Of a DNA stretch of 64,000 bases, positions 9,297 through 59,703 are shown piece after piece. Under the pieces are notes generated by a model that was not told the origin of the DNA, ran no database searches, and worked only from the letters and a program-made list of their open reading frames with translations. A program made the translations under genes and the position numbers. Location: positions 13,293-77,292 of the IMG/VR virus record IMGVR_UViG_3300027313_000002; one strand, 5' to 3'. Position 1 is the first letter of the stretch. Each line of letters starts with the position of its first letter. The stretch comes from a virus.

Positions 9297-11270
9297 TCAC
9301 GCCTCCTCCCCGGGCTCGTCCCGCGGGTCCTCATCCTGCCCTGCCGCGGGCGGCGGCGCCTCGCAGACGGCCCAGTGCTTGACCGGCGCGTCGCCCAGGT
9401 ACTGCACCACGCCGCGGTCCTCCAGCACGGCCATGGCGCCCTCCGGGCCGTACAGCCAGGACCGGGACCGCCCGGCCCGCTGGCAGACCCCGGACTCGTT
9501 CAGGTCCCGGGCAGTCACCTCGGCCTGGCCGGCGGCGTTGCGCGGGCGGGCCGGGTCGTCACGCAGGGCCCACAGCAGGTCGCGGACCAGGGCGATGGCC
9601 TGCGCCGGGGCGGGCTTGGCCGCGGGCGGCGGCGCGCCCGCCTTATCGTACCGGCCACCCACGGGCCTGTCCGTGCTGGTAGGAGACGGGCCGGGCTTGG
9701 CCAGCAGCGCGTCCATCGTGCAGCCGTCCACCTCGCGGTCGCGGTCCTGGGCGTACTGCTGCACGTGCTCGAAGATGGCCTGCGCGCCGTCCCCCCAGGA
9801 GTACAGCCGGACCGGCAGCGCCTTGTCCGCGTCCGGGATGGTGAGCGTGTCCCACACGCTCATCCCCGGGTAGGACGCCCCCCACAGCTGCGGCCGGGCG
9901 CCCCGCTGCCGCTGGGTCTCGCTCAGCCCCAGCTCGGCCTGGCCGGCGTCGGCCACCCCGAAGCACACGTGGCCCTGCTGGGCGCGGGCTACCGTCGGGC
10001 CCTGGCTGTGGTGCACCGACTGCTGGGAGGAGTCGGCCCGGATGCCGGCCGACCGGACGTTGCGCTGCAGGGACACCCACAGGTCCTCCAGCTGCTTGCG
10101 GTCCAGCAGCGCCAGGATGTCCGGGGTCTCCTCGAAGAGGGCGTGCAGGTAGCTCAGGCCGCAGCCCCGCTCCCACTCGGTCATCTTGCGCTTCGCCAGG
10201 TAGTCGCAGCGGGCCAGCCGGGCCCGCTTGAGCGCGTACAGCAGCTCGACGGCATCCTCGGGCTCCACGGCCAGCGGCAGCGCCATCGCTGCCTCCAGCG
10301 CGCCGAGGAACTGGCGCCGCTTGGCGACGTCCGCGGCCACCACCGCGTAGTCGCGCCGGGTGACGCCCTCGGCGATCATGTTCCAGGCGTAGCCCATCGA
10401 CTTGGCCGACCCGGACTGGCCCATCACCTTGACCGAGTGCGAGGGCAGCAGGCGGTACAGGAACAGGTCGGAGTCCTGCCGCAGGCCGAGGCGGAACGGC
10501 GCATCAGCGATGCTCTCCCCGGGAGCGGACGGCCCCGGCCACGGGACGGGCCCGCGCAGCAGCACCTGCGGGTCGGTGATCTTGACGTTGCCGACCCCCG
10601 CGTCGCCCAGGTCGCTGGTCACCGTCCAGCTGCCCGGCGGGTGCCGCAGGGCGGCCTCCACCCGCTCGATGTCCTCAGCGGCCTCGCCGACCACCATGCC
10701 GTCCGGCAGCTGCAGCCCGGCCTCGGTCACCACCGCCCGCTGGCCGCCCGCCGGGGACCCGGCCCGGCGGTGCCGGACGCTGAACAGCCGGGCGCCCTGC
10801 ATGCCGACCGGCTCGGCCTTGGCCGCGAACGCCTTGGCCAGGTCCCGGTTGTCGCCCGCGCTCAGCCACAGGTCCCAGATGACGCAGGCGCACAGCCCGC
10901 CCAGGAAGTAGGCCATCGCCAGCACCCGGCCGAAGCCGAAGATCAGGAACGCGGCCAGCGCCAGGGCGGCCAACGCCGCGGTGACCGGGCCGATCAGCCG
11001 ACCGACCACGGCGGCCCGGTGCCAGCGCAGGTGCAGGTCGAAGCCGGTCACGGCGGTGCCCAGCGCCAGCACCGTCAGCACCGTCCCGGCCCGGAACCAG
11101 AACCCGCTCTCGATGAGCAGGAACAGCTTCAGCACCAGCCCGGTCAGGGTCAGCCCGATCCAGGCGCCCCAGGGCAGCACCATGTGCCAGAGCTTGATCA
11201 GGACCTCGTTCCGGCCGCTCTGGTGCTGCGCGGACGGCGTCGGCCGCCCGCTGACGGTCCGGCTAGGCAC
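9297..11270 (-). CDS. traB: TraB-like FtsK/SpoIIIE conjugative DNA translocase
   Basis: N-terminal TM helices; Walker A variant GQSGSAKS; LFEET Walker B; RSAGI; C-terminal wHTH (RSRSWLY...LEDRGVV). Confidence 0.8.
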   Translation of the reverse strand: MPSRTVSGRPTPSAQHQSGRNEVLIKLWHMVLPWGAWIGLTLTGLVLKLFLLIESGFWFRAGTVLTVLALGTAVTGFDLHLRWHRAAVVGRLIGPVTAALAALALAAFLIFGFGRVLAMAYFLGGLCACVIWDLWLSAGDNRDLAKAFAAKAEPVGMQGARLFSVRHRRAGSPAGGQRAVVTEAGLQLPDGMVVGEAAEDIERVEAALRHPPGSWTVTSDLGDAGVGNVKITDPQVLLRGPVPWPGPSAPGESIADAPFRLGLRQDSDLFLYRLLPSHSVKVMGQSGSAKSMGYAWNMIAEGVTRRDYAVVAADVAKRRQFLGALEAAMALPLAVEPEDAVELLYALKRARLARCDYLAKRKMTEWERGCGLSYLHALFEETPDILALLDRKQLEDLWVSLQRNVRSAGIRADSSQQSVHHSQGPTVARAQQGHVCFGVADAGQAELGLSETQRQRGARPQLWGASYPGMSVWDTLTIPDADKALPVRLYSWGDGAQAIFEHVQQYAQDRDREVDGCTMDALLAKPGPSPTSTDRPVGGRYDKAGAPPPAAKPAPAQAIALVRDLLWALRDDPARPRNAAGQAEVTARDLNESGVCQRAGRSRSWLYGPEGAMAVLEDRGVVQYLGDAPVKHWAVCEAPPPAAGQDEDPRDEPGEEA

Positions 11271-21973: not shown

Positions 21974-22141
21974 TCATGGCGCACACTCGATGACGGCCAG
22001 CAGGTCGGCAACGTCCTGGCTCTCCAAGGCCCGGACTTCCAGCCGGGCCCGGGCCTCGGCGTACCGGCACTCGCGCTCCTGGCGCTGCGCGCGCAGCCCG
22101 TCGGCGACGGCGGACAGGTCGATGACTAGCTCGTGATCCAT
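21974..22141 (-). CDS. small coiled-coil protein
   Basis: MDHELVIDL..., between tail genes. Confidence 0.45.
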   Translation of the reverse strand: MDHELVIDLSAVADGLRAQRQERECRYAEARARLEVRALESQDVADLLAVIECAP

Positions 22142-22145
22142 TGGC

Positions 22146-23059
22146 TCACCCAAATGCGTAGAGGCCGAAGAAGGAACCGGACAGGTAGTAGCAGCTGGCC
22201 GGGCAGGCCAGCGACAGCGAGCTGATCGCGGCCTGGGCGGCCGGGTTGTAGAAGCCCCAGCGGATCCGGCCGTCGACCATGGCCCCGGTCCCGTTGCCCG
22301 ACCCGGACATGCTGTAGTAGCTCTTGTTGTACGTCGCCTGGCTGTAGTTGGGCAGGAAGGCGAACCCGCCGCCGGCGTTGACCGCCGACCCGGCCAGGCT
22401 GGCCGCGACCCGGCAGACCGGCCAGACGGTGTTCGCGGCCGAGGCGAACTGGCTGCTGGCCAGCGCCCCGGTGCCGGCCCCGCTGATGTTGGACAGGTAG
22501 AAGCTCAGGTAGCTGTAGACCGCGGTGGTATCCCCGTTGACCTGCATCAGGATGTCGTCGGTCTGGTTGTTGGTCTCGGTCAGCCGGGCCTGGATCATGA
22601 TGAGCAGGTGCTTGAAGGTCGCCGGGATGGCGCTCCAGGTAACCAGGTTCGTGGTGCTGTTGGGCAGCGTGGTCTCGTTGATGGTCGTGAAGGCGCCGAC
22701 CGACCAGGCGGTCGAGGGCAGGCCGTGCGGCAGCTGGGCCAGCTGGGCGATCTCGTGGGCCCGGCTCAGCGCCAGGTCCCCGGCCGTCATCTCGTGCTGC
22801 ACCGTGGTGCCGGCACCCCAGGCCGAGGCCGAGGTGGTGTCCTGGGCCCGGGTGATGGTCCACGGCGTGCCCGAAGTCCCGGCCCCGGCCGTGACGTAGA
22901 CGATTTCCGCGCCGCCGAGCACCAGCTTGAACGGGAACGTGGTGGGGTACCCGGACGGCGTGGTACTCAGGTACACGCTGGTCGCGGAGTTGGAGATGGC
23001 CGCTCCGGTCACGCCGGCTACGGCGACGTTGCTAAATAGTAGAAGGCGGGCGTCGTCAT
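22146..23059 (-). CDS. minor tail protein with a frame break at TTA (codon 9)
   Basis: MTTPAFYY in one frame joins SNVAVAG... in the long ORF; YPTTFPFKLVL...EIVYVT...TITRAQD. Confidence 0.7.
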
Positions 23060-23089
23060 CCTTCCTCGTCACCCCCGCCCACGCCACCG

Positions 23090-23659
23090 TTACTGCAAGG
23101 AGCGCCGCCTGCCTCGCACGATGTAGGAGATACTGGCCTGAGACACCCCGTAAAGGGCAGCCAAGCTCTCCTGCGAGACACCACCAGCCTGGTAAACGGC
23201 AATGAGCGCGCGAGCCTGGTCATCGGTGAGCTTGGCCCGTCCTGCCTCAATGCCAACCCGCACAGGAGGCAGGTGACCGCGCCCCCGCGAATGCATTTCC
23301 TTGGTGTTCTCAGCTGCTGTGCCCTCATGGACATGCTCAGGGTTCTCGGCATTGCAACAGAGCCCGAAGTCACAGCCGTGCAGGGCCTGCGGCTCAGGCC
23401 AGTGACCGTGCACAAAATAGAACGCTGCACGGTGGGCAAGAACAAACTGCCGCCGCTCGCCTCCCCAGAAGAACCTGCCGTAGTACAGGTCCGGCATGCC
23501 CTTGGCAAGCGCCTTGGCACCCGTCCAGGGCCAGCACTCGTCATAGCCCCGGCGGTCCACCTTGGGCCAGAAGCGAACCTCAGGCGATACAACGCCACTG
23601 CCCTTTGGCCGTCCTGCTGACTGGTGCCGTCGGCACCGGCACCCTGACTCGCAACGCAT
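23090..23659 (-). CDS. HNH homing endonuclease with C-terminal HTH
   Basis: RFWPKVD, CWPWTG, AHR, HGCD..CCN..H, AKLT...LAALYGVS. Confidence 0.9.
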   Translation of the reverse strand: MRCESGCRCRRHQSAGRPKGSGVVSPEVRFWPKVDRRGYDECWPWTGAKALAKGMPDLYYGRFFWGGERRQFVLAHRAAFYFVHGHWPEPQALHGCDFGLCCNAENPEHVHEGTAAENTKEMHSRGRGHLPPVRVGIEAGRAKLTDDQARALIAVYQAGGVSQESLAALYGVSQASISYIVRGRRRSLQ

Positions 23660-23684
23660 ATCTTAATGATACAGCCTCGCATAT

Positions 23685-24542
23685 CTATAGGTAGCAATCG
23701 TTCCATTTCAGCGTGGCTGTCCCAGCGGAGACCTGGATGATGTTGGCTCCGGGCAAGAGACAGAGCCACATGCGGCTGCCGCTGTGGGTGAGCCCGGCCG
23801 CCTGGTTGATGCCCGCGGTGTCGGTGACGGTGAAGTTGAGGATGTCGACGGTGACCGGGTAGACAGCCCCGGCCGCGCTGAAGCTGAACGCCACCCCGCA
23901 CGTGGTGTTGGTGACGGTGGCCGCGGCGCTCAGCTGGACGGTGAAGGCGCTGACCGCACTGGGGTACCCCTCGCCCACGATGCCCTCGCCCAGGGCCGTG
24001 CACGTGGTGCTGGCGCCCGTGCAGGCCGCGGTCTGCTGCGCGCCGTAGAAGTACGGGTCGGACAGGAGGAAGTCGACGCTGAACGCGGCCGAGGTACGGC
24101 CGTTCATGGTCAGGTCCATGGAGCCGGCGATCTCGGCCATGGCCGTGCTGGTGACCAGCTTGGGAGTGCCCTGGGTGAGGTACCAGTTGCGCTGCAGCTG
24201 GCCCTGCACCGACCCGGTGGGGTTGCGGTACCACAGCATCTTGCGCAGCTGCTGCAGGTTGTCGTTGAAGGCCAGCCGCTCGTCCGCACTCGGGTAGGAC
24301 TGCGAGGCGCTGGCCTGGCCGCCGGCCCACATGGCCAGGGTGAGGGTGCGCTCGTCCGGGTATTTCTGCCGGAAGCCCTGGCCCGCGCGGTAGGCCGCCG
24401 CGTAGTCCGAGCCGCGCAACGTGGGCAGCGCGAACCGGCTGCCGCCGAAGGTGGCGATGTTCATGTAGGACTGGTTGAGCGCGGTGCCGTTCCAGTACCA
24501 CAGCTCGGCCGGGGAGTAGGCGGCAGCCGACGGCGCTGGCAT
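23685..24542 (-). CDS. distal tail (Dit)-like protein
   Basis: Follows the tape measure; DPYFYG, LLPGAN.I motifs. Confidence 0.8.
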   Translation of the reverse strand: MPAPSAAAYSPAELWYWNGTALNQSYMNIATFGGSRFALPTLRGSDYAAAYRAGQGFRQKYPDERTLTLAMWAGGQASASQSYPSADERLAFNDNLQQLRKMLWYRNPTGSVQGQLQRNWYLTQGTPKLVTSTAMAEIAGSMDLTMNGRTSAAFSVDFLLSDPYFYGAQQTAACTGASTTCTALGEGIVGEGYPSAVSAFTVQLSAAATVTNTTCGVAFSFSAAGAVYPVTVDILNFTVTDTAGINQAAGLTHSGSRMWLCLLPGANIIQVSAGTATLKWNDCYL

Positions 24543-27500
24543 AACGCGAGCCCCCTTCCGGCCAGGAACGCGAGGCGGTTGGACGCCCGGGTGATCGACT
24601 GGCTGGGCTGCTCGGCCGTGGGGTTGTTGATGACCATGCTCTCGACGTTCAGGGCCGGCCCCCTGGTCGCCGCAGCGGCATCGGACAGGGTGCGCGGCTG
24701 CTCACCGCCGAACCCCGGGGCGGACAGCTTGCGGGCCATCACGGGACTCACGCCCATCGGGCTGAAGTAGACCGGCCCGCCGAGCGCGAACATGCCGGCG
24801 ACGTCGCCCAGGCCGCCGCCCGCGGCGAAGCCGTAGCCCGCGCCGGTCACCGACAGGTCGAAGACGGGCTGGCCGGGTCCGCCGACGGTGACCAGCGGGC
24901 CCAGGTTCCAGCCGATGCCGGGCGTGGTGTCCACCCGCGGCGCCGCCGGGCCCGGGCCGCCGAGGATGCCGCCGGCGATGCCCGCGCCGGCGTACAGCTC
25001 GGACCAGGCCTGCTGCGCCACGTCCTTGGTAATCCCCAGGTGCCCCAGCTGGGTCCGCATGGCGCTCCACTGGCCGGGCAGGTAACGGAGCGCATCCCAC
25101 CCGCTGGGCGGCACGGTGCCCGGCTTCCACCCGGACGGCATCTTCTTCGGCCAGGTATGGCCCAGCTCGGCGCCCCACGCGCTGCGCGGCGCTCCGGGCA
25201 CGGTGTACAGCCAGTTCCACATCGTGCTCAGCTGCTTGCCGAAGTTCGTCCACATGCCCGGCGTGATGACGTCGGGCCGCACGAAGTCCTCGGACAGCGC
25301 CATGTACGCCCCGGCCGGGACGGCGCCGATGCCGATGGCCCTGTTCTGCTGGGCCTGGAGGATGTCGATGTCGGCCTGCCATTGCAGCGCGCCCGGTGTC
25401 TGCGCGATAGCCTTCGGCAGCCTGGCATTCTTGAGCGCGGTCCACGCCTGCGCCTCAGCCTGCACCGCCTGCGGCAGCGTGGTCTTGGAGTAGTTCAGCC
25501 ACGTGGTCTCGGCGTCCAGGCCGCCGGGGAAGACCGTGCCGCCCGCGGCGTAGCTCAGGCCCGAGGCGATCAGCGCGCTGGCCACCGGGTCCGACGCCCA
25601 CGGCTGGTACCCGGACGCGTTGTACAGGGAGACGGCCGCCCGGGTGTTGTTGGCCGCGTTGAGCAGGTTCCCGAAGGCGCCGTTCTGGCTGATGCCGCTG
25701 GTCGGGGTGATCTGGTACAGGCCCCAGCCGGTCAGGCCGGGCGGCTGGCCCTGCTGGATGGCGCCCGCGTTGTCCCCGGACTCGGCGTAGGCGATCCGGG
25801 CCATGTTCTGTGCCGCGGAGGCCCGGCCGCCCTCCTGGACCCACAGCGAGGCGATCTGCGCCGCCGTCATGAGACCGCCGGTCGGGCCGGCCGCAGCGGC
25901 GGAGGCGAAGGCGCCGAGCGCAGACTGGCTGGCGATGGCCTGGCTCTTAGCCTTGGAGTCCTGGCCGGTCATGAAGTTGTCGATGCCCAGCTTCAGGTTA
26001 TGGGCCAGCGCCTGCAGGATGGCCCCGGGCATGGTGTCGCCGGGCACCACGCCGAACAGCGGCGCGACGGTGTGGTCCCAGACGGCGTTGAAGATGGCCG
26101 TGGCGCCCTGCCGGGCCAGCTTCAGCAGCTCGCCGGCACCGCCGCTGACCAGGTTCGCCAGCGGCTTGATGAGGCTGCCCAGCCCGGTGCCTGCCGAGTC
26201 CAGCAGCCCTTCCACGGTCTGCCAGACCTGGCCGATGCCGCCGAGCGCGGCGCTGATGACGTTCTGCCCGCCGGGGCCGCCGAGCCGCACGCCGACGACG
26301 AAATTGTCGTTGCTGATGGGCGTCTCGGTCACGCCCAGGGCGGTGTCGTAGGCGCTGATGAGGGTGCCGGACGCGGCGGCCATGCCGGTATGGCCGATGC
26401 CGCCCCACTTGGACGGGTCGGGCGAGGCCCCGGTGAAGAACAGGATGTCGCCGGCCTGGATCTGGCTGCGGTTGGTGAAGGTGTAGTCCGAGTCCCAGGC
26501 CGAGAACCAGTCGGCTTCGAGGTTGGCGATGGCCGAGGACTGCGGGATGGGCACCCCAGCCGCGTTGGCGGCGGACCACACCAGGCTGGAACAGTCGTAC
26601 GGCGGGCGCCCCCACCGGTTGGCCTCGCTGTAGGCATCCCCCCGGCGGGCCAGCATGTAGCTGAGCATGGCCTGCTCGATCTGGCCGCCCGAGGCGTACG
26701 GGGCCGGGGACCAGTCCCTCGGCGCGTTGCCCCGGCCGGGCATGTGCGGCGGGTTGCCGAGCCCGCCGCCGGCCGCGAACCCCTGCGAGGCCATGGTGCC
26801 GCGGGACCCGGCGCCGAGCCACTGGTCCGCCTGGTTGAGGCCGTTCAGGAAGTCCGGCCCGAACGCCCGGTCCAGCGCCATCCGGGCCGGCTGGCGGAGC
26901 ATGTACTCCCCGCCCATGGCCAGGATGGGCGTGCCGTCCACCGCGCTGGCCCCGGGCACCGACCCGCCGCCCGGGTAGACCGGGCCCCCGGCTGCCCTGA
27001 TGAGCGGCACATCAGGGATGGACAGGCCGCCCGGCAGGTGCTTCAGGATGACGTTGTTAATCGCGTTGATCGTGCCATTGATGGGGTTCTGGATTACCCA
27101 GTTAATGGCAGCCTTGAAGGCGGTCTCGATGTCATTGCCGAGGCCGGAGATCATGCCGCCGACGGGTATGGCGATCTTGGACTGGAACCAGCCGCGGAAC
27201 TGGTCGAACCACTGCGGCACCAGCACGGTGAACAGGTGCGACATCCCGCCCACGATGTCGTTATTGAAGAAGCGCCAGCTGTCGGCCCAGGCGATGGCGG
27301 ACCCGGACACGAAGCTGTTAAGCCAGGCCGGCACGCTGACGGTGAAGAAGTGCGCCACGTTGCTGACCAGGGTGCTGCTGAAGAACCGCCAGGCCTGGGC
27401 CCAGGCGATGCTGGCCCCGTTCACGAAGCCGGCGAACCAGGCGGGCACGGAGGCGGTGAAGAAGTGCGCGACATTGGCCACGATGGCGCTGTCGAACCAG

Positions 27501-30500: not shown

Positions 30501-32082
30501 ATGGCGGTCTCGACCACGGCATCCAGGGCGAAGTGCCAGGCGTGGATAGAGCCGATGAACCCGGTCGTGCCGAGCAGGCCGGCGAAGACCAGGACCTTGG
30601 CGTTCAGGAACCCCCAGCCGTTGGCCGCGTTCACCAGCCACGGGGCCATCCAGCCGAGCGCGGAGCCCAGGGTGCGGCCCGTATCCGCGGTGTCCTTGTT
30701 GGCCGCGGCGGCCTCCCGGGCAGCCTGCGCCTGGGCCATGGTGGCCATCCAGATAAGCCGGGCCTTGGCCGTCAGGTCGTCCTCGGCCGCGGCGGCGGCC
30801 CACAGCTCGTCCGCCATGTCCTTGGTGCTCTTGGCCGCATCGTCGGCGGCGGCGGCCTGGTTGCGCAGCGCGCTGGCGGTCGCGTTGATGTCGGCCGGCT
30901 CCTCGGGCGGCGGGGCCGCGCCCGCAGCCGGCGGAGGGCCCCCGCCTCCCCCGCCTGCCGCGCCGCCCATGCCCAGCGTGGGCCCGATGGTCGGCGCGAA
31001 CCGCTCGGCCATGGCCGCCTTCAGCCGGGCCATGAACGCGTTCAGCTCCTCCATCGCCGCGGTGTCGTCGAACTCGGCGGCGAAGGCGTACCGCTCCCGG
31101 ACCGCGCGCATCAGCTCGTCCATCCACTGGCTCAGCTGCACCTGGGCGTGGCTGGTGTCGACGTCGATGACCTCCAGTTCCTCCAGCCTGGCGGGCAGGA
31201 ACCTGTAGGGCTCGATGGCCTTGGACGGCTCGGTGCCCGGGTAGGTGGCCGGCCCGTAGCCGCCCTGGCCGGGCGGCAGCGCGGCTCGCAGCGGCGGCGG
31301 CAGGACGGCGGGCCGGAACGTCTCCGCGCTCGGCAGGGCTGCCAGCGCGGCCCGGTAGACAGCCAGCTGGGCCATGGCCCTGGTGGCATCGAACTGCGCC
31401 TGGGTGACCACGATGTCCGGCAGGCCGGACAGCGCGGCGGCGTAGCTGGCCGCGGCGCTGATGCCCTCGCCGAGCTGGCCGATGGACTCGTGCGTGCCGT
31501 GCACCGCATCCTGGTAGGCCAGCATCGCCTGGGTCTCGGCTGTGATGGCGGTGGTCCGCGCCCGGATGGCGGCGCCCTCCTGGGAGTAGGCGGTGATCTC
31601 CTTCTGCAGGTACGTCAGCCACTGATCCGGCGTGAGATAGCCGCCAAACCGGGCCCTGTTCTCCTGCAGGGTCAGCGTGAGCATCTGCATCCGCCAGGCG
31701 GCGTACTGCTGCGGGGTGGTGAAGCCGAGGTCCCGGGCACGGTTGAGCAGCTCCTGCAGCTGGGTCTCGCGCTGCAGGTCGGCCAGGTGCTGGGTCATGT
31801 CGGACCGGCCGCCGTACAGCAGCTGCGGGTTGGTCGCCTTGGCCGCCGCGCCCAGCTGGTTCAGCGCGGTGGTCTCCTCGCGCATGGCGGCCACGTCGGC
31901 CTTGCGGGCCGCTGCCGCCGCGGTCGCGCCGGCCACCTCGGCCGCCGACTCGGCCTTGGCCGCCTCGGCCATGCCCTGCATTTCCTTCTTGGCGGCCTCG
32001 GCGTCCCGCATCAGGTCACCGAAGTCGGCAATGGCCTTAACTTGTAGATGACATACCAGTACTCGGGTCCCTCATAGGCCAT
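24461..32082 (-). CDS. tape measure protein with NlpC/P60 and lytic transglycosylase domains
   Basis: About 2500 aa, Ala/Trp-rich; YDCSSLV..GDILFF..GHTG; AESG..GLYQI; probable true start ATG 32082 via a 5-nt hop. Confidence 0.9.
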
Positions 32083-37742: not shown

Positions 37743-40070
37743 TTACCCGCGCCTCCACCCGGCAGGCGCGGCCAGCGCGGCGATGCCGGCCTCCTCCGGC
37801 TCCCGACGGCAGCCCATGGCCAGGTCGTACACGGCCGCGCCCGGGCCGGCCACCTCGTCGCGGATACGCCGGAACAGCGCCTCGATGACCACCTGCCAGT
37901 CGCACATCAGCGGGATGGTGCGGGCGGCCAGCTCGGCCTTGCGCCGGGCCTCCTCGCGATGCGTGTAGATGTGCCAGATGACGTCCTTCAGGTGCGGCAC
38001 CTGGACCCGGGCGTCATGAGCGGCCCACGGCTTCTGCTCGAAGGTCGGGGCCAGCTCGTAGCCCAGCGGGTAGGCGTAGTCGGCGTTCAGCCACTGCCGG
38101 TGGCCGCCGAAGTCGGTGGCGGCCACCGCCCCGCCCGTGGTCATGAACTCCAGCGCGGGCAGGTTCTTGCCCTCCCCCCTGGACGGCGCCAGCAGCACGT
38201 GCCCGGAGGCGTAGAAGTCCTGCAGCGTGCGGTGGTCGAACGCGTCGACGAACACCTTGATCCGCTGCTCCTCGAAGACCTTGTTCAGCTCGGGGAACAG
38301 GTCTCCCGGCAAGATGGTATGCAGCGCGAAGGTGGCGTTGTCGAAGCCGTCCGGCCATGGGCCCGGCCGCTCGAACTTCAGCTCGTTGAAGGCCTGGATG
38401 GCGGTCCACGGGCACTTGCGGGCGCCGAGCGCGCCGTGCATGAGGAAGCCGAACCGGCCCAGGCCGTCCCAGTCCCGGGTGAGGAAGTGCCACTCCGAAC
38501 TGTCGTAGCCGCCCTGCAGGACGCCGCGGCATACCCGGCGCGGGATGTAGGGCTCCAGCGCGGCCAGGCTCACCTCGTCATAGCCCAGCAGCAGGTCGAA
38601 CCAGCGCAGCGCCGACGGCAGCCGGGTGCGGCCCCGGCAGTGCGGGACCAGCCCGGACACGCCCCTGCCGTCCCTGCCCGGGCCGCCGGCAAATTCCCAC
38701 ATCGTGTTACCTGTGTAGAAGATGTGACCCTCATGCCGGGCCAGCCAGTTCCCGTGCTTAACCGACGGGCACCAGATCACGCCCTGGTACGTCTCTCGGG
38801 TCGGTGACCGGGTATTGAGCACCGCCGTGTCCCGGGAAGAGAGGCGCACCGTAGCAAGGTGCGGATGCTGAGTCCTGTGCGGCCGGGACACCGGCTGGCC
38901 GGCCAGCACGCAGGCAGCCACGAAAGCATCCAAGCGAGGCCCGCGAGCCTGCGAGAAAACCCGCTCGCTCTCGCATTCATGCCCGTCAGCCAGCAGGCTG
39001 ACCTTAATGAACAGCTCCAGCTGAGCTGGCGTAAGCGACAGCAGGAACCTCATCGACGGCACTTTGCCCGGGCAGGCGGCAAGGACCTCCTGAGACACCG
39101 GGCGAGAGATATTGAAGATGATCATCCCGTCCGGCTTAGGTGGCGCCTCGGTCCAGGTCTGATACCCAGCCCGCTGCCCGAGAGCGCCCCGACCGGATTC
39201 ACGCATGTAGCAGGTGTGGCACAGCCCGCGCGCCCGGGTGACCCGGCCGAGGCTGTCTGGCTTAGTGCTACCGCACAAGTCGCATGCCTCGGGCTTCCCG
39301 TTCGGCTGAGCCGGTCCGCACAGAGCCAGCAGCGCCGCGCGGATGCGCTGCGTCTTGGACGGGTTGACGCGCTCATTCTGCCCGATGCGGACAGACTTCC
39401 CGCGCTCCAGCCATCCCTCGGTGTAGGTCCAGGCGACCAGCTCAACGAACGCATCCGTGTACTTGGACTCTTGCGGCAGCTGAGCGCACGGCACGCTGCG
39501 GATGATCTGGTCACCCGCCTTCAAGGCCGCCGACGTCCGCCAGGCCAGGTGCTGCGCCGCGTCCCGGATGAGCCAACGGTGCGACGGGTTAGTCAGCGAC
39601 TCGTGCCCGGGCGCCTTCAGGCGCACCATCTCGTGGCACGCATCGCCCGACCGGTAAACATCCCGGATGTCCTGCCATTCAGACAAGCCGGTCGCCGGAT
39701 TGATCCCGAGTGCCTGGTCACTGGCCTCGATCTCCTCATGCCAGAGCCAGCCTCGCCTGGTGAAGATTTCCACGTTCTGTGATACGCACCAGGCGACCGC
39801 CACCCTGGTAGCCAGGCGCGCCTCCCTGGTGATGTACAGGTGAGCGGGATCCCAGTGATTGATCAGCAAGTCGAACGGCGGCTTCAGCTCGCGCGTGAAC
39901 AGGTGCACAAGGTCCCGGGGGATGGGCACATCGAGCCAGGTGGGCTGCGGGTACACCTCGCAGCCCCAGCGGTCCAGCCCCCGGATGAGGCCCCAGCCGT
40001 CAGTGCCGTACCCAGAGAACTCGCTAAACGGGCTCTTGACGATGACCTTCAGCGGGCGGTCAGCAGGCAC
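37743..40070 (-). CDS. GT4-like glycosyltransferase interrupted by an intein
   Basis: FSGYG, AW|TMWE, PSRGEGKNLPALEF. Confidence 0.85.
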   Translation of the reverse strand: MPADRPLKVIVKSPFSEFSGYGTDGWGLIRGLDRWGCEVYPQPTWLDVPIPRDLVHLFTRELKPPFDLLINHWDPAHLYITREARLATRVAVAWCVSQNVEIFTRRGWLWHEEIEASDQALGINPATGLSEWQDIRDVYRSGDACHEMVRLKAPGHESLTNPSHRWLIRDAAQHLAWRTSAALKAGDQIIRSVPCAQLPQESKYTDAFVELVAWTYTEGWLERGKSVRIGQNERVNPSKTQRIRAALLALCGPAQPNGKPEACDLCGSTKPDSLGRVTRARGLCHTCYMRESGRGALGQRAGYQTWTEAPPKPDGMIIFNISRPVSQEVLAACPGKVPSMRFLLSLTPAQLELFIKVSLLADGHECESERVFSQARGPRLDAFVAACVLAGQPVSRPHRTQHPHLATVRLSSRDTAVLNTRSPTRETYQGVIWCPSVKHGNWLARHEGHIFYTGNTMWEFAGGPGRDGRGVSGLVPHCRGRTRLPSALRWFDLLLGYDEVSLAALEPYIPRRVCRGVLQGGYDSSEWHFLTRDWDGLGRFGFLMHGALGARKCPWTAIQAFNELKFERPGPWPDGFDNATFALHTILPGDLFPELNKVFEEQRIKVFVDAFDHRTLQDFYASGHVLLAPSRGEGKNLPALEFMTTGGAVAATDFGGHRQWLNADYAYPLGYELAPTFEQKPWAAHDARVQVPHLKDVIWHIYTHREEARRKAELAARTIPLMCDWQVVIEALFRRIRDEVAGPGAAVYDLAMGCRREPEEAGIAALAAPAGWRRG
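38706..39788 (-). mobile_element. 361-aa intein with LAGLIDADG endonuclease
   Basis: Starts CVSQNVEIFTRRGW, ends HIFYTGN with +1 Thr; TEGW and LLADGH motifs. Confidence 0.9.
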
Positions 40071-55682: not shown

Positions 55683-57284
55683 TCACGCGCCCCGTCCCTG
55701 CAGCTGCGGCGGCCCGGGGCCGCGCCCGCCACCCAAGCCGGGCCCGCCCGGCGCCGTCTCCGGCGGAGCGAAGCCCGGCGGCGGGAACGGCCCCGGGGGA
55801 GGCGGCCCCGGAGGCTGCGCCCCGCCCGGCTGAGCGCCCTGCCCGGCCCCCGGCGGCGCCGGCTGCGGCGGGCCCTGCTGCGCCATCATCCGGGCCTGCC
55901 GCTCGCGGTCGCGCTTGATCTTGTCGTAGTCGATGTCGAACCCGAAGTTGACCGCCATCTGCTGCTCCAGGTCCAGCATGAACTCGGGCGTGACGTTGGC
56001 CTGCATTCCCGCCGCCGCCAGCTTGTCGAAGGTATCCTGCACGGCCGCCTTCTGCTCCTGGGTCAGCGGGCTGAACTTGAAGGTCGGGTACCGGTGCGAG
56101 CCGAAATTCCAGTCCACGAACCGGGGGAAGATATGGACGTTTATCAGCTCGGTGATCTCCTCCAGTATCCCTTCCAGCATCAAATAGTATGTCGTGTCCT
56201 CCTGCTTGCCGAAATCTACGAGCGTGCTGTCACCCTGACCGCCACCCTGCTCATTGTCGAACCACTGCGCGAGCACCGATTTGGACATCTGCGAATTGTG
56301 GTGATTGATCAAGCCCAAAAAGTCGAAGCGGGCCGCCGCCTCGTTCAGCGTCTGCACCGTCCAGTCGGCCGACGGCACCGCGATGTACTGGGCCAGGCCG
56401 AGCTGGGCCAGCGCCTGGATGAAGTGGTCCTTGTCGGAGGCCGGGGCGTTCGGGACCATGGTGCCGATGCGCAATCCGACCGCTGCTCTCTGCGCGGCCA
56501 GGTGCGCAATGTAATACAATTTCTCTTTCTTGTCATAATGGTAGTATGCCGATTCGAACATTGACACGCCGTAGAAGGGGCGCTCGGCCTCTTCGTGCGC
56601 GTAGTAAATAGCGGTCTCCCTGGGGATCTTGACATCAATCGTGCGCCCCTGAAAAAACGTCCTTTGCCTGAAGCCGTTGAATTTACCCTGGCCGTCGAGC
56701 AGGAACGTGAGGGTCTCCGATGGCCTCCAGTCCACTTCCCGGAGGGTGATTTTCCCCGCATTGGGTCCCAGCTTCGGCACCCAGTAGATCAGCTCCCAGG
56801 CGGAGAAGCCGTTGAACAGCGCGAGCAGGGCCTGCTTGATGAACCGGGAGAACGAGTGCGTCATGCCGCCCATCTGCGGCGGCGCGAACAGCAGGTCCTT
56901 GCAGAACTGGGCCTCCTCGGTGCCGCCGAGGGTGCCCTGGATGGGCACGACGTCGGCGTTCTTGAGGCTGGCCAGCAGCGGCTTGGTCAGCAGCCGGTAC
57001 AGCGCCCGGGCCTGGCCGTCCCGCCTGCGCATGGCGATCAGCTGGCGGATAGACACCGGGTCGTCGCGGAAGACCTCCCAGCTGTCCCGGTACGGGGTCG
57101 CGAACGGCAGGAAGTAGGGGACGCCGACAGCGAAGTTCTCGCCCTCCGGGGGCGGCTTGGGCAGCTGCTGCTGCTCGGGCAGGACGTAGCCCTCCTGCCC
57201 GAACCCCTGGGTCGTGACCCCCATGCCGCCAGGCGGCTGCAGGCGCGACTCGTACGGGCCCTGACCGCCGCCTGGTGTGGTCAC
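55683..57284 (-). CDS. portal protein (DUF935/Mu gp29-like)
   Basis: GFSAWEL, PFYGVSMF, HHNSQMSKSVLAQ, NFG..YP.F; precedes MuF. Confidence 0.9.
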   Translation of the reverse strand: MTTPGGGQGPYESRLQPPGGMGVTTQGFGQEGYVLPEQQQLPKPPPEGENFAVGVPYFLPFATPYRDSWEVFRDDPVSIRQLIAMRRRDGQARALYRLLTKPLLASLKNADVVPIQGTLGGTEEAQFCKDLLFAPPQMGGMTHSFSRFIKQALLALFNGFSAWELIYWVPKLGPNAGKITLREVDWRPSETLTFLLDGQGKFNGFRQRTFFQGRTIDVKIPRETAIYYAHEEAERPFYGVSMFESAYYHYDKKEKLYYIAHLAAQRAAVGLRIGTMVPNAPASDKDHFIQALAQLGLAQYIAVPSADWTVQTLNEAAARFDFLGLINHHNSQMSKSVLAQWFDNEQGGGQGDSTLVDFGKQEDTTYYLMLEGILEEITELINVHIFPRFVDWNFGSHRYPTFKFSPLTQEQKAAVQDTFDKLAAAGMQANVTPEFMLDLEQQMAVNFGFDIDYDKIKRDRERQARMMAQQGPPQPAPPGAGQGAQPGGAQPPGPPPPGPFPPPGFAPPETAPGGPGLGGGRGPGPPQLQGRGA

Positions 57285-58956: not shown

Positions 58957-58999
58957 GCGCTTCCCCTTAGAGGAACCGCGGCGCGGGTCCGGTCCTTAG

Positions 59000-59074
59000 C
59001 TGGCCAGGCGGGACTCGAACCCGCGCCGCACGGTTTAGGAAACCGCGGCTCTATCCAGACTGAGCTACTGGCCA
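59000..59074 (-). tRNA. tRNA-Arg(CCT)
   Basis: Cloverleaf; loop TTCCTAA. Confidence 0.9.
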
Positions 59075-59078
59075 TTTG

Positions 59079-59150
59079 AGGCGGAAGCGGGGCTCGAACC
59101 CGCGTGTCGCGCTTTGCAGGCGCGCACCTAGCCAACTCGGTCATCCCGCC
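59079..59150 (-). tRNA. tRNA-Cys(GCA)
   Basis: Loop CTGCAAA. Confidence 0.9.
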
Positions 59151-59151
59151 G

Positions 59152-59227
59152 TGGCGTCCCCAGCAGGGCTCGAACCCGCACGCCCGGCTCCGGAGGCCGG
59201 TGCTCTATCCAGCTGAGCTATGGGGAC
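59152..59227 (-). tRNA. tRNA-Arg(CCG)
   Basis: Loop CTCCGGA; CCA encoded. Confidence 0.9.
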
Positions 59228-59228
59228 T

Positions 59229-59312
59229 TGGTGGCGGACGCAGGACTCGAACCTGCCGTGTCGGAGACGACGGTTTTACGGACCGCTCCCTTGCCTCTAG
59301 GGTTACTCCGCC
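59229..59312 (-). tRNA. tRNA-Tyr(GTA)
   Basis: Loop CCGTAAA; long variable arm; CCA. Confidence 0.85.
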
Positions 59313-59313
59313 T

Positions 59314-59390
59314 TGGGGCGACCGGCGGGGCTCGAACCCGCTTACCTGGATCCACAGTCCAGTGCCTCAGCCTGTTCGGCTTCGGCCGCC
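59314..59390 (-). tRNA. tRNA-His(GTG)
   Basis: Loop CTGTGGA; G-1:C73; CCA. Confidence 0.9.
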
Positions 59391-59391
59391 A

Positions 59392-59467
59392 TGGTGGGCG
59401 ATGCAGGGATCGAACCTGCGCAGTCCCGCGGTGTGAACGCGGCGCTCTCCCGCTGAGCTAAACGCCC
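59392..59467 (-). tRNA. tRNA-Val(CAC)
   Basis: Loop TTCACAC. Confidence 0.9.
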
Positions 59468-59553
59468 GTGCTCGCACTTGACGGATGCGAGCTGTGAGGT
59501 CCCAGGCAGCGCTACCTGGTCCACCGGGCCGTCTTTAAGCGCGGCCGTTCACG

Positions 59554-59626
59554 TGCGCCCAGAGGGACTCGAACCCCCATTGCCAGATCCGTAGTCTGGA
59601 GCCCTTGTCCTTTAGACGATGGGCGC
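59554..59626 (-). tRNA. tRNA-Arg(ACG)
   Basis: Loop CTACGGA. Confidence 0.9.
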
Positions 59627-59630
59627 GTAG

Positions 59631-59703
59631 TGGGCGGCACTGGGTTCGAACCAGTGCCCTCCTACGTGTCAGGTAGGCGCTCTCCCGGCTGAGCTAGCCG
59701 CCC
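59631..59703 (-). tRNA. tRNA-Val(GAC)
   Basis: Loop CTGACAC. Confidence 0.9.

Follow-up and report, generated by a model that had tools for sequence, protein, structure and literature searches.

A gap of two nucleotides led by the leucine codon UUA splits a small tail-fibre gene at its ninth codon in an uncultured lineage of soil actinophages of about 150 kb, and the full-length fibre would best be explained by ribosomes that stall at this UUA and move forward by two nucleotides. The gene lies on the minus strand of a stretch of 64,000 nucleotides (the window, whose positions are used throughout), which is part of a 77,292-bp virus record (IMGVR_UViG_3300027313_000002) with 71% G+C. To a hungry-codon +2 skip at the UUA of the fibre gene, a reading drawn from sequence comparison, we give a probability of about 0.55. 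A sequence-only reading of the window had noticed that the frame opened by the ATG at 23059 runs into a TTA and ends after 13 codons, and the minus strand holds exactly this arrangement: after eight codons (frame A, MTTPAFYY), in which seven of the eight third positions are G or C as read from the sequence, the zero frame continues with TTA, GCA ACG TCG CCG and then TAG. The remainder of the gene is found two bases out of frame in a long open reading frame (ORF; 22146 to 23087, frame B, reading ...LLLFSNVAVAGVTGAAISN...), of which the deposited protein P0002 represents 288 residues, starting at GTG 23012. If the two T residues at 23035-23034 are skipped, the octapeptide of frame A and the frame-B sequence SNVAVAGVTGAAI join to give the exact N-terminus of the protein family, and since both frames together rebuild this N-terminus the TT splits one gene. 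A strong Shine-Dalgarno sequence precedes ATG 23059; none is present ahead of GTG 23012 or GTG 23072. Positions of all features are collected in Table 1.

The family against which this N-terminus can be judged is large. A search among 5.8 billion proteins returned about 120 relatives, mostly of 301-313 residues, and about 110 of the 120 begin with M[TS]TPAF[YF]YSN.., M.TQ..[YF]YSN or ..WR[YF]YSN, M.TQ..YYSN and ..WRYYSN being the N-termini of more distant clades. P0005 starts with MTTPAFYYSN, which matches frame A of the window exactly, and P0003 (74% identical) starts with MSTPAFFYSNVAVQGVTGAAI; the YYSN-like junction predicted from a 2-nt skip before any homologue had been seen is thus the one the alignment contains. 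Conservation across the family reaches at least 90% at residues S9, N10, A12 and V13. At the nucleotide level, unbroken relatives read TAC TAC AGC AAC at the junction (L031), with TAC-AGC also in L009 and many others, so that the flanks are contiguous in homologues and the insert is absent there, as is the case at bypass sites of the phiHau3 type. The PHROG tail-fibre family phrog_38058 matches the fibre body from residue 18. In an AlphaFold model of P0003 with a mean confidence score (pLDDT) of 87.6 the N-terminal domain resembles chain 8jov_1 of the portal-tail complex of phage GP4 (template modelling score 0.67 on the target), and the C-terminal domain is a lectin-like sandwich; by profile match and model the gene product is a small tail-fibre or receptor-binding protein. 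Among cultured phages the locus had no match by blastn and only a weak match, to Streptomyces phage Stella, by tblastn, and scans of viral contigs for the pattern YY-NN-AGCAA yielded only two already known relatives and chance matches.

The DNA itself is sound: TATTTAGC is real DNA, not TATTTTAGC. The stretch is present in 24 soil-metagenome runs (2016 and 2018) with identical sequence at a depth of 5-16, no RNA run being among those listed, and the Logan contigs of four runs (X1, X6, X21 and X22; depths 5.8-16.4) contain 0 substitutions and 0 indels over 23031-23059, X1 and X6 being possible sources of the record and X21 (5.8) and X22 (7.3) not being flagged as such. As the Logan data are contigs, rare variants are invisible in them, but assembly slip is excluded because four independent soil-run contigs agree at the site, and the homopolymer error for which a read check had been proposed is absent. 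The observation that prompted the analysis is therefore confirmed, and its interpretation as a programme rather than an error is supported.

Codon usage and the tRNA complement set this TTA apart. In-frame TTA occurs at most 13 times in the 20,881 codons of candidate ORFs (<=0.6 per 1000), mostly in doubtful 5' extensions, so that the genome-wide count that had been suggested finds the codon nearly absent elsewhere. For comparison, a set of six related phage contigs (the window's phage, G0, and G1 to G5) and two metagenome loci was used. In the three phages with readable tRNA sets (G0, G3 and G4) no tRNA-Leu(UAA) is found among 35-37 tRNAs, leucine being served by the anticodons CAG, GAG and CAA only; on the phage side UUA is thus rare and its decoder is not supplied. 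No tRNA with an expanded anticodon was seen, ARAGORN and Rfam being the only means by which one was looked for. At the site itself (C TAT TTA) neither a -1 nor a +2 shift lets the P-site tRNA-Tyr pair again, and only the A-site half, U UUA, fits a -1 slip, which falls short of a classical slippery site. A matched hop for tRNA-Tyr was sought and none was found, the sole near-cognate triplet downstream being the TAG at +4, which leads into the wrong frame. The landing on TTT had been called unmatched, and so it is.

The break recurs in the family. In G3 (L001) and G4 (L016), both phages of about 150 kb with fibres about 50% identical to that of the window, the gene reads GTG ACC CAA TGG CGC TAT TAC TT AGC AAC and ATG ACC CAA TGG CGT TAC TAC TT AGC AAC, respectively, so that TT again splits the Tyr|Ser junction; their frame A is headed by a Shine-Dalgarno sequence and a GTG or ATG start, and gene callers took a frame-B ATG instead, giving 'MALLLSN'. 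The metagenome locus L036 reads TAC TAT CC AGC AAT, with CC in place of TT, and the P0059 type does likewise. A further variant, L058, has one extra T (TTT T TAC), which creates TTT-TTA-C, an ideal +1 site, along with ATT at the start position and no frame-B start at all. On a tree computed without the N-terminal columns, the nine broken fibre alleles need eight changes, on at least five branches. As the broken alleles of the WRYY clade have one distinctive 5' haplotype in common, eight changes overstate the number of origins, which would rather be about three, with spread of the 5' end by recombination. The ratio of non-synonymous to synonymous substitution rates (dN/dS) ranges from 0.38 to 0.47 in pairs of broken alleles and from 0.43 to 0.48 where a broken allele is paired with an unbroken one; for the window and L031 it is 0.80, and for an unbroken pair 0.65. 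With a single break, an open body of 295 codons, a dN/dS in the range of the family and fixation in 24 runs, the gene does not look like a pseudogene, and dN/dS, which is a weak test, gives no sign of decay.

How could ribosomes produce the fibre from such a gene? In the proposed sequence of events, they would start at ATG 23059, synthesize MTTPAFYY and come to a halt once UUA occupies the A site, which would stay unfilled because the cognate tRNA is in short supply and not encoded by the phage. Some of them would then move by +2 without cognate re-pairing and resume at AGC, and the product would be a full-length fibre, MTTPAFYY-SNVAV..., with the predicted tryptic N-terminal peptide TTPAFYYSNVAV...FPFK. 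Ribosomes that decode UUA normally would stop after 13 codons. The TT insertion probably came with, or was selected because of, the cassette encoding an HNH endonuclease upstream, and may act by disrupting the target site, as in T4 gene 60/mobA.

The fibre gap does not stand alone. The 5' ends of the tape-measure protein (TMP) genes of five relatives were compared, followed by a frameshift-aware comparison of all six contigs; the 5'-end comparison was noisy and had to be read by hand, and an ab initio scan for TTA with filters for G+C at third codon positions was too noisy and missed known sites. Across the six contigs and the two metagenome loci, 18 gaps were found in tape-measure, portal, glycosyltransferase-like and fibre genes. 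UUA is the first zero-frame codon in 16 of the 18, and the landing codon is cognate in 13, the 2-nt fibre gaps being the non-cognate exceptions. Judged by sequence, the fibre gap is one of a class of short UUA-led gaps in virion genes, often beside endonuclease cassettes. The TMP gene of the window has a gap of five nucleotides with matched AAG codons (...TAC AAG [TT AAG] GCC ATT...). This was the first of the two breaks described in the sequence-only reading, and homologues back it: an unbroken relative reads ...VIYKAIGDFGGLMRDA, the unbroken TMP of L067 YKAIGDFG and the unbroken TMP of G4 VAYEGPEYWYVIYKAIGDFGGLMRDA, and the TMP of G2 (L068), 43% identical to that of the window, has the same 5-nt gap, AAG-TT-AAG. 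Other relatives have one or two gaps of 11-15 nt at codons neighbouring the gap of the window. The TMPs of G1, G3 and G5 have two gaps each, of the form TGG[TTA....]TGG and GGT[TTAACAT.CA]GGY, with GCT[AGACCCTGATCA]GCT instead in G1. Between both gaps of these three phages lies the segment WYVIYKAI, in which at least seven synonymous and 0 non-synonymous differences occur across the six phages; it changes only synonymously and is therefore translated in its own frame, so that bypassing is required. The N-terminus of the TMP has no match in cultured phages. That two independent breaks at TTA argue for a programme rather than an error was an argument of the sequence-only reading. The programme is supported; independence holds only in part, because both breaks belong to a class that tends to adjoin homing-endonuclease cassettes.

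Portal genes are broken in G5 (ACC[TTAG]ACC) and G3 (ACC[TTAA]GCC and GGC[TTAACCT]GGT), with gaps of 7 and 10 nt at L077 (G3 about 149,700-149,810) and L222 (G5 about 45,480), where an HNH gene lies directly upstream; the portals of the window (55683-57284, Pfam Portal_Mu) and of G4 are unbroken. A 775-aa glycosyltransferase-like gene, unbroken in the window (37743-40070, minus strand), reads TTT-TT-AGC in G1 (L227, G1 10,586), where a +2 shift re-pairs perfectly on UUU, and TAT-T-TAT in G2 (L231, G2 49,590), a cognate +4 shift; both gaps lie upstream of a conserved SGYG motif. UUA may play another role where the TMP gene meets the Dit gene, as the overlap is TTATG in G0, G1 and G3 and TAATG or TGATG in G2, G4 and G5. 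If the TTA were read, the TMP tail would be extended by 26 codons in the window and by 6 codons in G3, and these sequences suggest that UUA takes the place of a signal to stop or stall. A wider picture, in which dozens of UUA micro-gaps of 2-15 nt were seeded throughout the lineage by HNH and EndoVII cassettes and UUA serves also as the stop at the TMP/Dit overlap, is tentative and in our estimate rather doubtful as a whole.

Two further places in which TTA occurs were recorded. The HNH ORF of G1 (L227, about 10,490-10,545) has no stop before the next GTG, and carries a TTA (CGA TTA TGC) where its homologue in the window ends. An in-frame GTA-TTA is kept in G3 (19,493), G4 (65,374) and G5 (63,908; minus strand in each), some 50 codons short of the C-terminus of a ~1,050-residue protein, and in G5 the frame changes within a few codons of it; ribosomes may recode or pause here too, or the UUA may simply be a normal sense codon.

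What connects these gaps to mobile genes is their neighbourhood. Between the Dit-like and the fibre gene of the window lies a gene for an HNH endonuclease whose product matches Pfam HTH_3, weakly HNH_3, and the PHROG endonuclease family phrog_1872 (5.7e-20). The nearest relatives L008/L031 and L009 (G1, G2) lack it at this junction, and their Dit stop overlaps the fibre ATG. A homologue with 44% identity is found directly upstream of the glycosyltransferase-like gene of G1 that is broken by TT|AGC, and another, with 58% identity, upstream of the broken L058 fibre. The broken TMPs of G1, G2 and G3 and the broken G4 fibre are each preceded by an EndoVII gene with a helix-turn-helix domain, and the broken G3 and G5 portals by HNH genes, with none at the unbroken TMP and portal of G4; for most gaps of the lineage an HNH or EndoVII gene is located directly upstream. 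Thus, free-standing endonuclease genes adjoin broken genes and are missing from unbroken relatives, as expected of homing cassettes, with exceptions: no intact cassette lies upstream of the broken fibres of G3 and L036 or of the broken TMPs of G0 and G5 (in G5 a 59-aa remnant is left). From this distribution an endonuclease origin of the fibre gap is probable, and we infer that the insert disrupts the target of the nuclease and that in needed genes an insert would persist only if it creates a UUA that can be skipped. Among the unbroken fibres, L006/L020, L046/L061 and L056 have an EndoVII or HNH gene directly upstream, and the junction of L056 is YYAN instead of YYSN, which may represent nuclease resistance by substitution instead of insertion. 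The G+C content at 22000-24000, around the HNH gene, is 0.667 vs about 0.71 overall, and the insert regions of relatives have 0.61-0.65, which is consistent with foreign cassettes.

Several points weigh against a +2 skip at UUA. After the shift tRNA-Tyr would face a non-cognate triplet (UUU, CUU in G3 and G4, UCC in L036), and RNA folding around the site gave z-scores of +1.06 to -1.14, with no significant, shared or conserved structure. In L036 the A-site codon is CCA, a codon that is not rare and for which the phage has a tRNA-Pro(UGG), and the same clade has a possible frame-B start ATG (MALLSSN); the CC allele means that UUA is not indispensable in that clade. Endonuclease genes are located upstream of unbroken fibres too (L006, L046/L061, L056), dN/dS does not separate broken from unbroken alleles, and residues 1-14 are without secondary structure in the P0003 model, so that an altered N-terminus may be tolerated. 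This last point also speaks for the strongest competitor, which we nevertheless consider unlikely, namely that no recoding takes place: the 13-codon ORF would be the remnant of an old N-terminus, perhaps a UUA-sensing leader, and the fibre would be made from a frame-B start, either at GTG 23012 by termination-reinitiation with loss of 17 residues or at GTG 23072/23087 (...RLLLFSN). The choice of GTG 23012 by gene callers (P0002), its 5-nt spacing from the stop, which suits coupling, the frame-B ATG of the other clade that gives MALLLSN, and a CC variant that keeps the frame and destroys UUA all fit such a start, and an upstream ORF with a UUA has been described at adpA (PMC10732093). A start at GTG 23012 would, however, sacrifice the conserved residues S9, N10, A12 and V13. 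A Shine-Dalgarno sequence serves ATG 23059 and neither GTG 23012 nor GTG 23072, and a start at the upstream GTGs would replace the conserved N-terminus by an extension made of four rare codons (CTT CTA CTA TTT, each about 1.5 per 1000), much as the sequence-only reading had held. Moreover, L058 offers no frame-B start, and in relatives the glycosyltransferase-like gene and the TMP have conserved segments before their gaps that are unreachable from any alternative start. The AlphaFold model and dN/dS cannot separate recoding from an alternative start.

Slippage of tRNA-Leu from UUA to UUU is established for U UUU UUA sites, and U_UUA is found at the A site of the HIV-1 frameshift site. By analogy, a tRNA-Leu(UAA) might decode the UUA of the fibre gene and slip by -1 to UUU, giving MTTPAFYY-L-SNVAV, in which case expression would depend on the presence of the UUA tRNA and not on its absence, and the sequence U UUA is present both here (TAT TTA) and in G1 (TTT TTA), in two gaps tied to the same HNH family. 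Yet the -1 triplet in G3 and G4 is CUU and thus a poor partner, YY is followed directly by SN in all of the roughly 110 homologues, a search for a stimulatory structure downstream found none, and the longer gaps of the same phages need forward bypass, all of which makes a -1 slip a distinctly weak contender. Still less probable is that the endonuclease cassette inactivated a dispensable or decaying gene. The 1-nt insertion of L058 together with its ATT at the start position, the higher dN/dS of the window against L031 compared with the unbroken pair, and the other large tail proteins encoded next door could be read in this way, but the 295-codon frame is intact, the phage occurs with identical sequence in the 24 soil runs from two years, broken alleles with open bodies are kept on many branches, and the dN/dS of broken pairs is the same as that of broken-unbroken pairs. 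That sequencing or assembly went wrong in the short T run deserves practically no weight, given the four Logan assemblies with 0 indels, a T run of only three bases and the recurrence of TT in another clade, in contigs unrelated to this one. A further idea, that UUAGC pairs with positions 34-38 of tRNA-Ser(GCU), was dropped because the CC allele does not fit it.

Table 1. Features of the split fibre gene and of related elements, in window positions.
Feature	Positions	Strand	Remarks
Frame-B body of tail-fibre-like gene, SNVAVAGVTGAAISN...	22146..23033	-	295 codons + stop TGA 22148-22146
Frame-B GTG	23010..23012	-	5 nt past frame-A stop; gene-caller start, possible re-initiation site
Zero-frame stop TAG	23018..23020	-	closes 13-codon peptide MTTPAFYYLATSP if TTA decoded normally
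Resume codon AGC	23031..23033	-	first base A 23033 = last base of TTA
Zero-frame TTA	23033..23035	-	directly after TAT
Extra bases TT	23034..23035	-	relative to unbroken relatives
Take-off codon TAT (Tyr8)	23036..23038	-	translation
Frame-A segment, codons 1-8 MTTPAFYY	23036..23059	-	ATG 23059-23057, then ACG ACG CCC GCC TTC TAC TAT
Shine-Dalgarno sequence GAGGAAGG	23060..23067	-	serves ATG 23059; read from sequence
Upstream frame-B GTGs, 23087-85 and 23072-70	23070..23087	-	alternative starts giving ...RLLLFSN
HNH endonuclease gene with C-terminal helix-turn-helix, 189 aa	23090..23659	-	between Dit-like and fibre genes
TTA replacing tape-measure stop	24542..24544	-	overlaps Dit ATG (TTATG)
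Tape-measure 5' end	32036..32082	-	ATG 32082, MAYEGPEYWYVIYK, 5-nt gap AAG-TT-AAG
Parts of tape-measure gap	take-off AAG 32043-41, TTA 32040-38, landing AAG 32038-36	-	resumes at GCC
Phage tRNA array	58999..63908	-	ARAGORN, 36 tRNAs; relaxed run adds tRNA-Tyr

The tRNA array has two peculiarities. Its tRNA-Tyr(GTA), the take-off tRNA at the fibre gap (about 59232-59315, minus strand), is missed by ARAGORN at default settings and has a weak acceptor stem; in the window its anticodon loop is CCGTAAA, with C33 where nearly all tRNAs have U33; the loop of G3 and G4 is the normal CTGTAAA. Inside the array lies a full-length bacterial class A RNase P RNA (61957-62284, minus strand; Rfam RF00010, 263.7 bits, E 5.9e-86), and we know of no other RNase P RNA borne by a phage.

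Coding gaps near homing endonucleases are familiar from phage T4, for which Bonocora and colleagues are said to have described in 2011 the 50-nt bypass of gene 60 together with the mobA homing-endonuclease cassette. The pair is also the subject of a preprint by Manning and Atkins (cited in PMC10732093). The fibre gene resembles it in that a coding gap in an essential phage gene lies beside a free-standing HNH-type endonuclease gene and plausibly protects the target site of the carrier; it differs in that the gap is 2 nt and not 50, there is no take-off hairpin, matched GGA codons are missing, no signal in the nascent peptide is known, and a rare sense codon takes the part that a stop codon plays in gene 60. 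Closer in this last respect are the large terminase genes of Streptomyces phage phiHau3 (g6/g7/g8), which contain two 10-nt UUA-led inserts, and of prophages with 7-nt inserts (Antonov et al., 2023; PMC10732093), the gaps of phiHau3 and two Streptomyces prophages having first been reported by Smith and colleagues (Smith et al., 2013, in PMC10732093). There, bypassing was argued from conservation of the junction, the junction peptide was detected by mass spectrometry in E. coli, and strong local RNA structure around UUA was reported for four terminase sites (Antonov et al., 2023; PMC10732093). Common to both are a frame-disrupting insert with UUA right after the last sense codon and flanks contiguous in relatives, a high-G+C actinophage setting with hardly any use of UUA, a zero-frame stop a short way on, and near-invariant residues on both sides that argue against extra amino acids. 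In contrast to the phiHau3 type, the fibre gap has 2 nt instead of 7-10 nt, no cognate landing codon and no strong RNA structure, it lies at codon 9 of a tail-fibre gene instead of in a terminase, an endonuclease gene adjoins it, and its lineage has many gaps per genome, in four gene families.

Frameshifting at a hungry codon without P-site re-pairing has precedents in the +1 shift of yeast Ty3 and in low-level +2 shifting (Weiss et al., 1987, cited in PMC10732093). As in these cases, a slow A-site codon would admit the next aminoacyl-tRNA out of frame on overlapping triplets, although the shift in the known examples is +1 or, at low level and in reporters, +2. To our knowledge no natural gene depends on a +2 shift at UUA. 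The byps of Magnusiomyces capitatus mitochondria, GC-rich elements of 27-55 nt (Lang et al., 2014, cited in PMC10732093), likewise are bypassed inserts that occur many times per genome, several in one gene, and are probably mobile, but they are mitochondrial, not led by UUA and not linked to endonuclease genes. By its portal, the nearest cultured relative of the lineage is Microbacterium phage Magritte (50% identity, 133 kb), in which the portal is unbroken, and a scan of bacterial genome contigs found no relatives and hence no prophage or clue to the host, which is likely actinobacterial. Nothing tested supports a developmental reading in the style of Streptomyces bldA.

Published evidence for UUA-triggered bypassing is confined to terminase genes, those of a single phage and of two prophages. 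Judged by the alignments, the fibre gap would be a minimal form of UUA-led recoding that is new, as are the gene and the phage lineage in which it occurs; this form (2 nt, non-cognate) appears repeatedly at a single codon junction of the tail-fibre family, among 18 gaps. The link to homing cassettes offers an origin for such gaps that parallels T4 gene 60/mobA. There is a consequence for annotation as well, since gene callers truncate such proteins (288 residues here; 'MALLLSN' starts elsewhere). The gaps also form a graded natural series (+1, +2, +4, +5 and 7-15 nt) with which it can be tested what stalled ribosomes are able to skip. If the +2 skip is true, the fibre site would be the first natural gene dependent on a +2 shift without cognate re-pairing, possibly aided by the phage tRNA-Tyr with C33, and if the lineage-wide picture is true as well, UUA would be practically unassigned during infection and act as a general take-off and stall signal. 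The finding thereby bears on how phages may couple the production of virions to the availability of host tRNAs.

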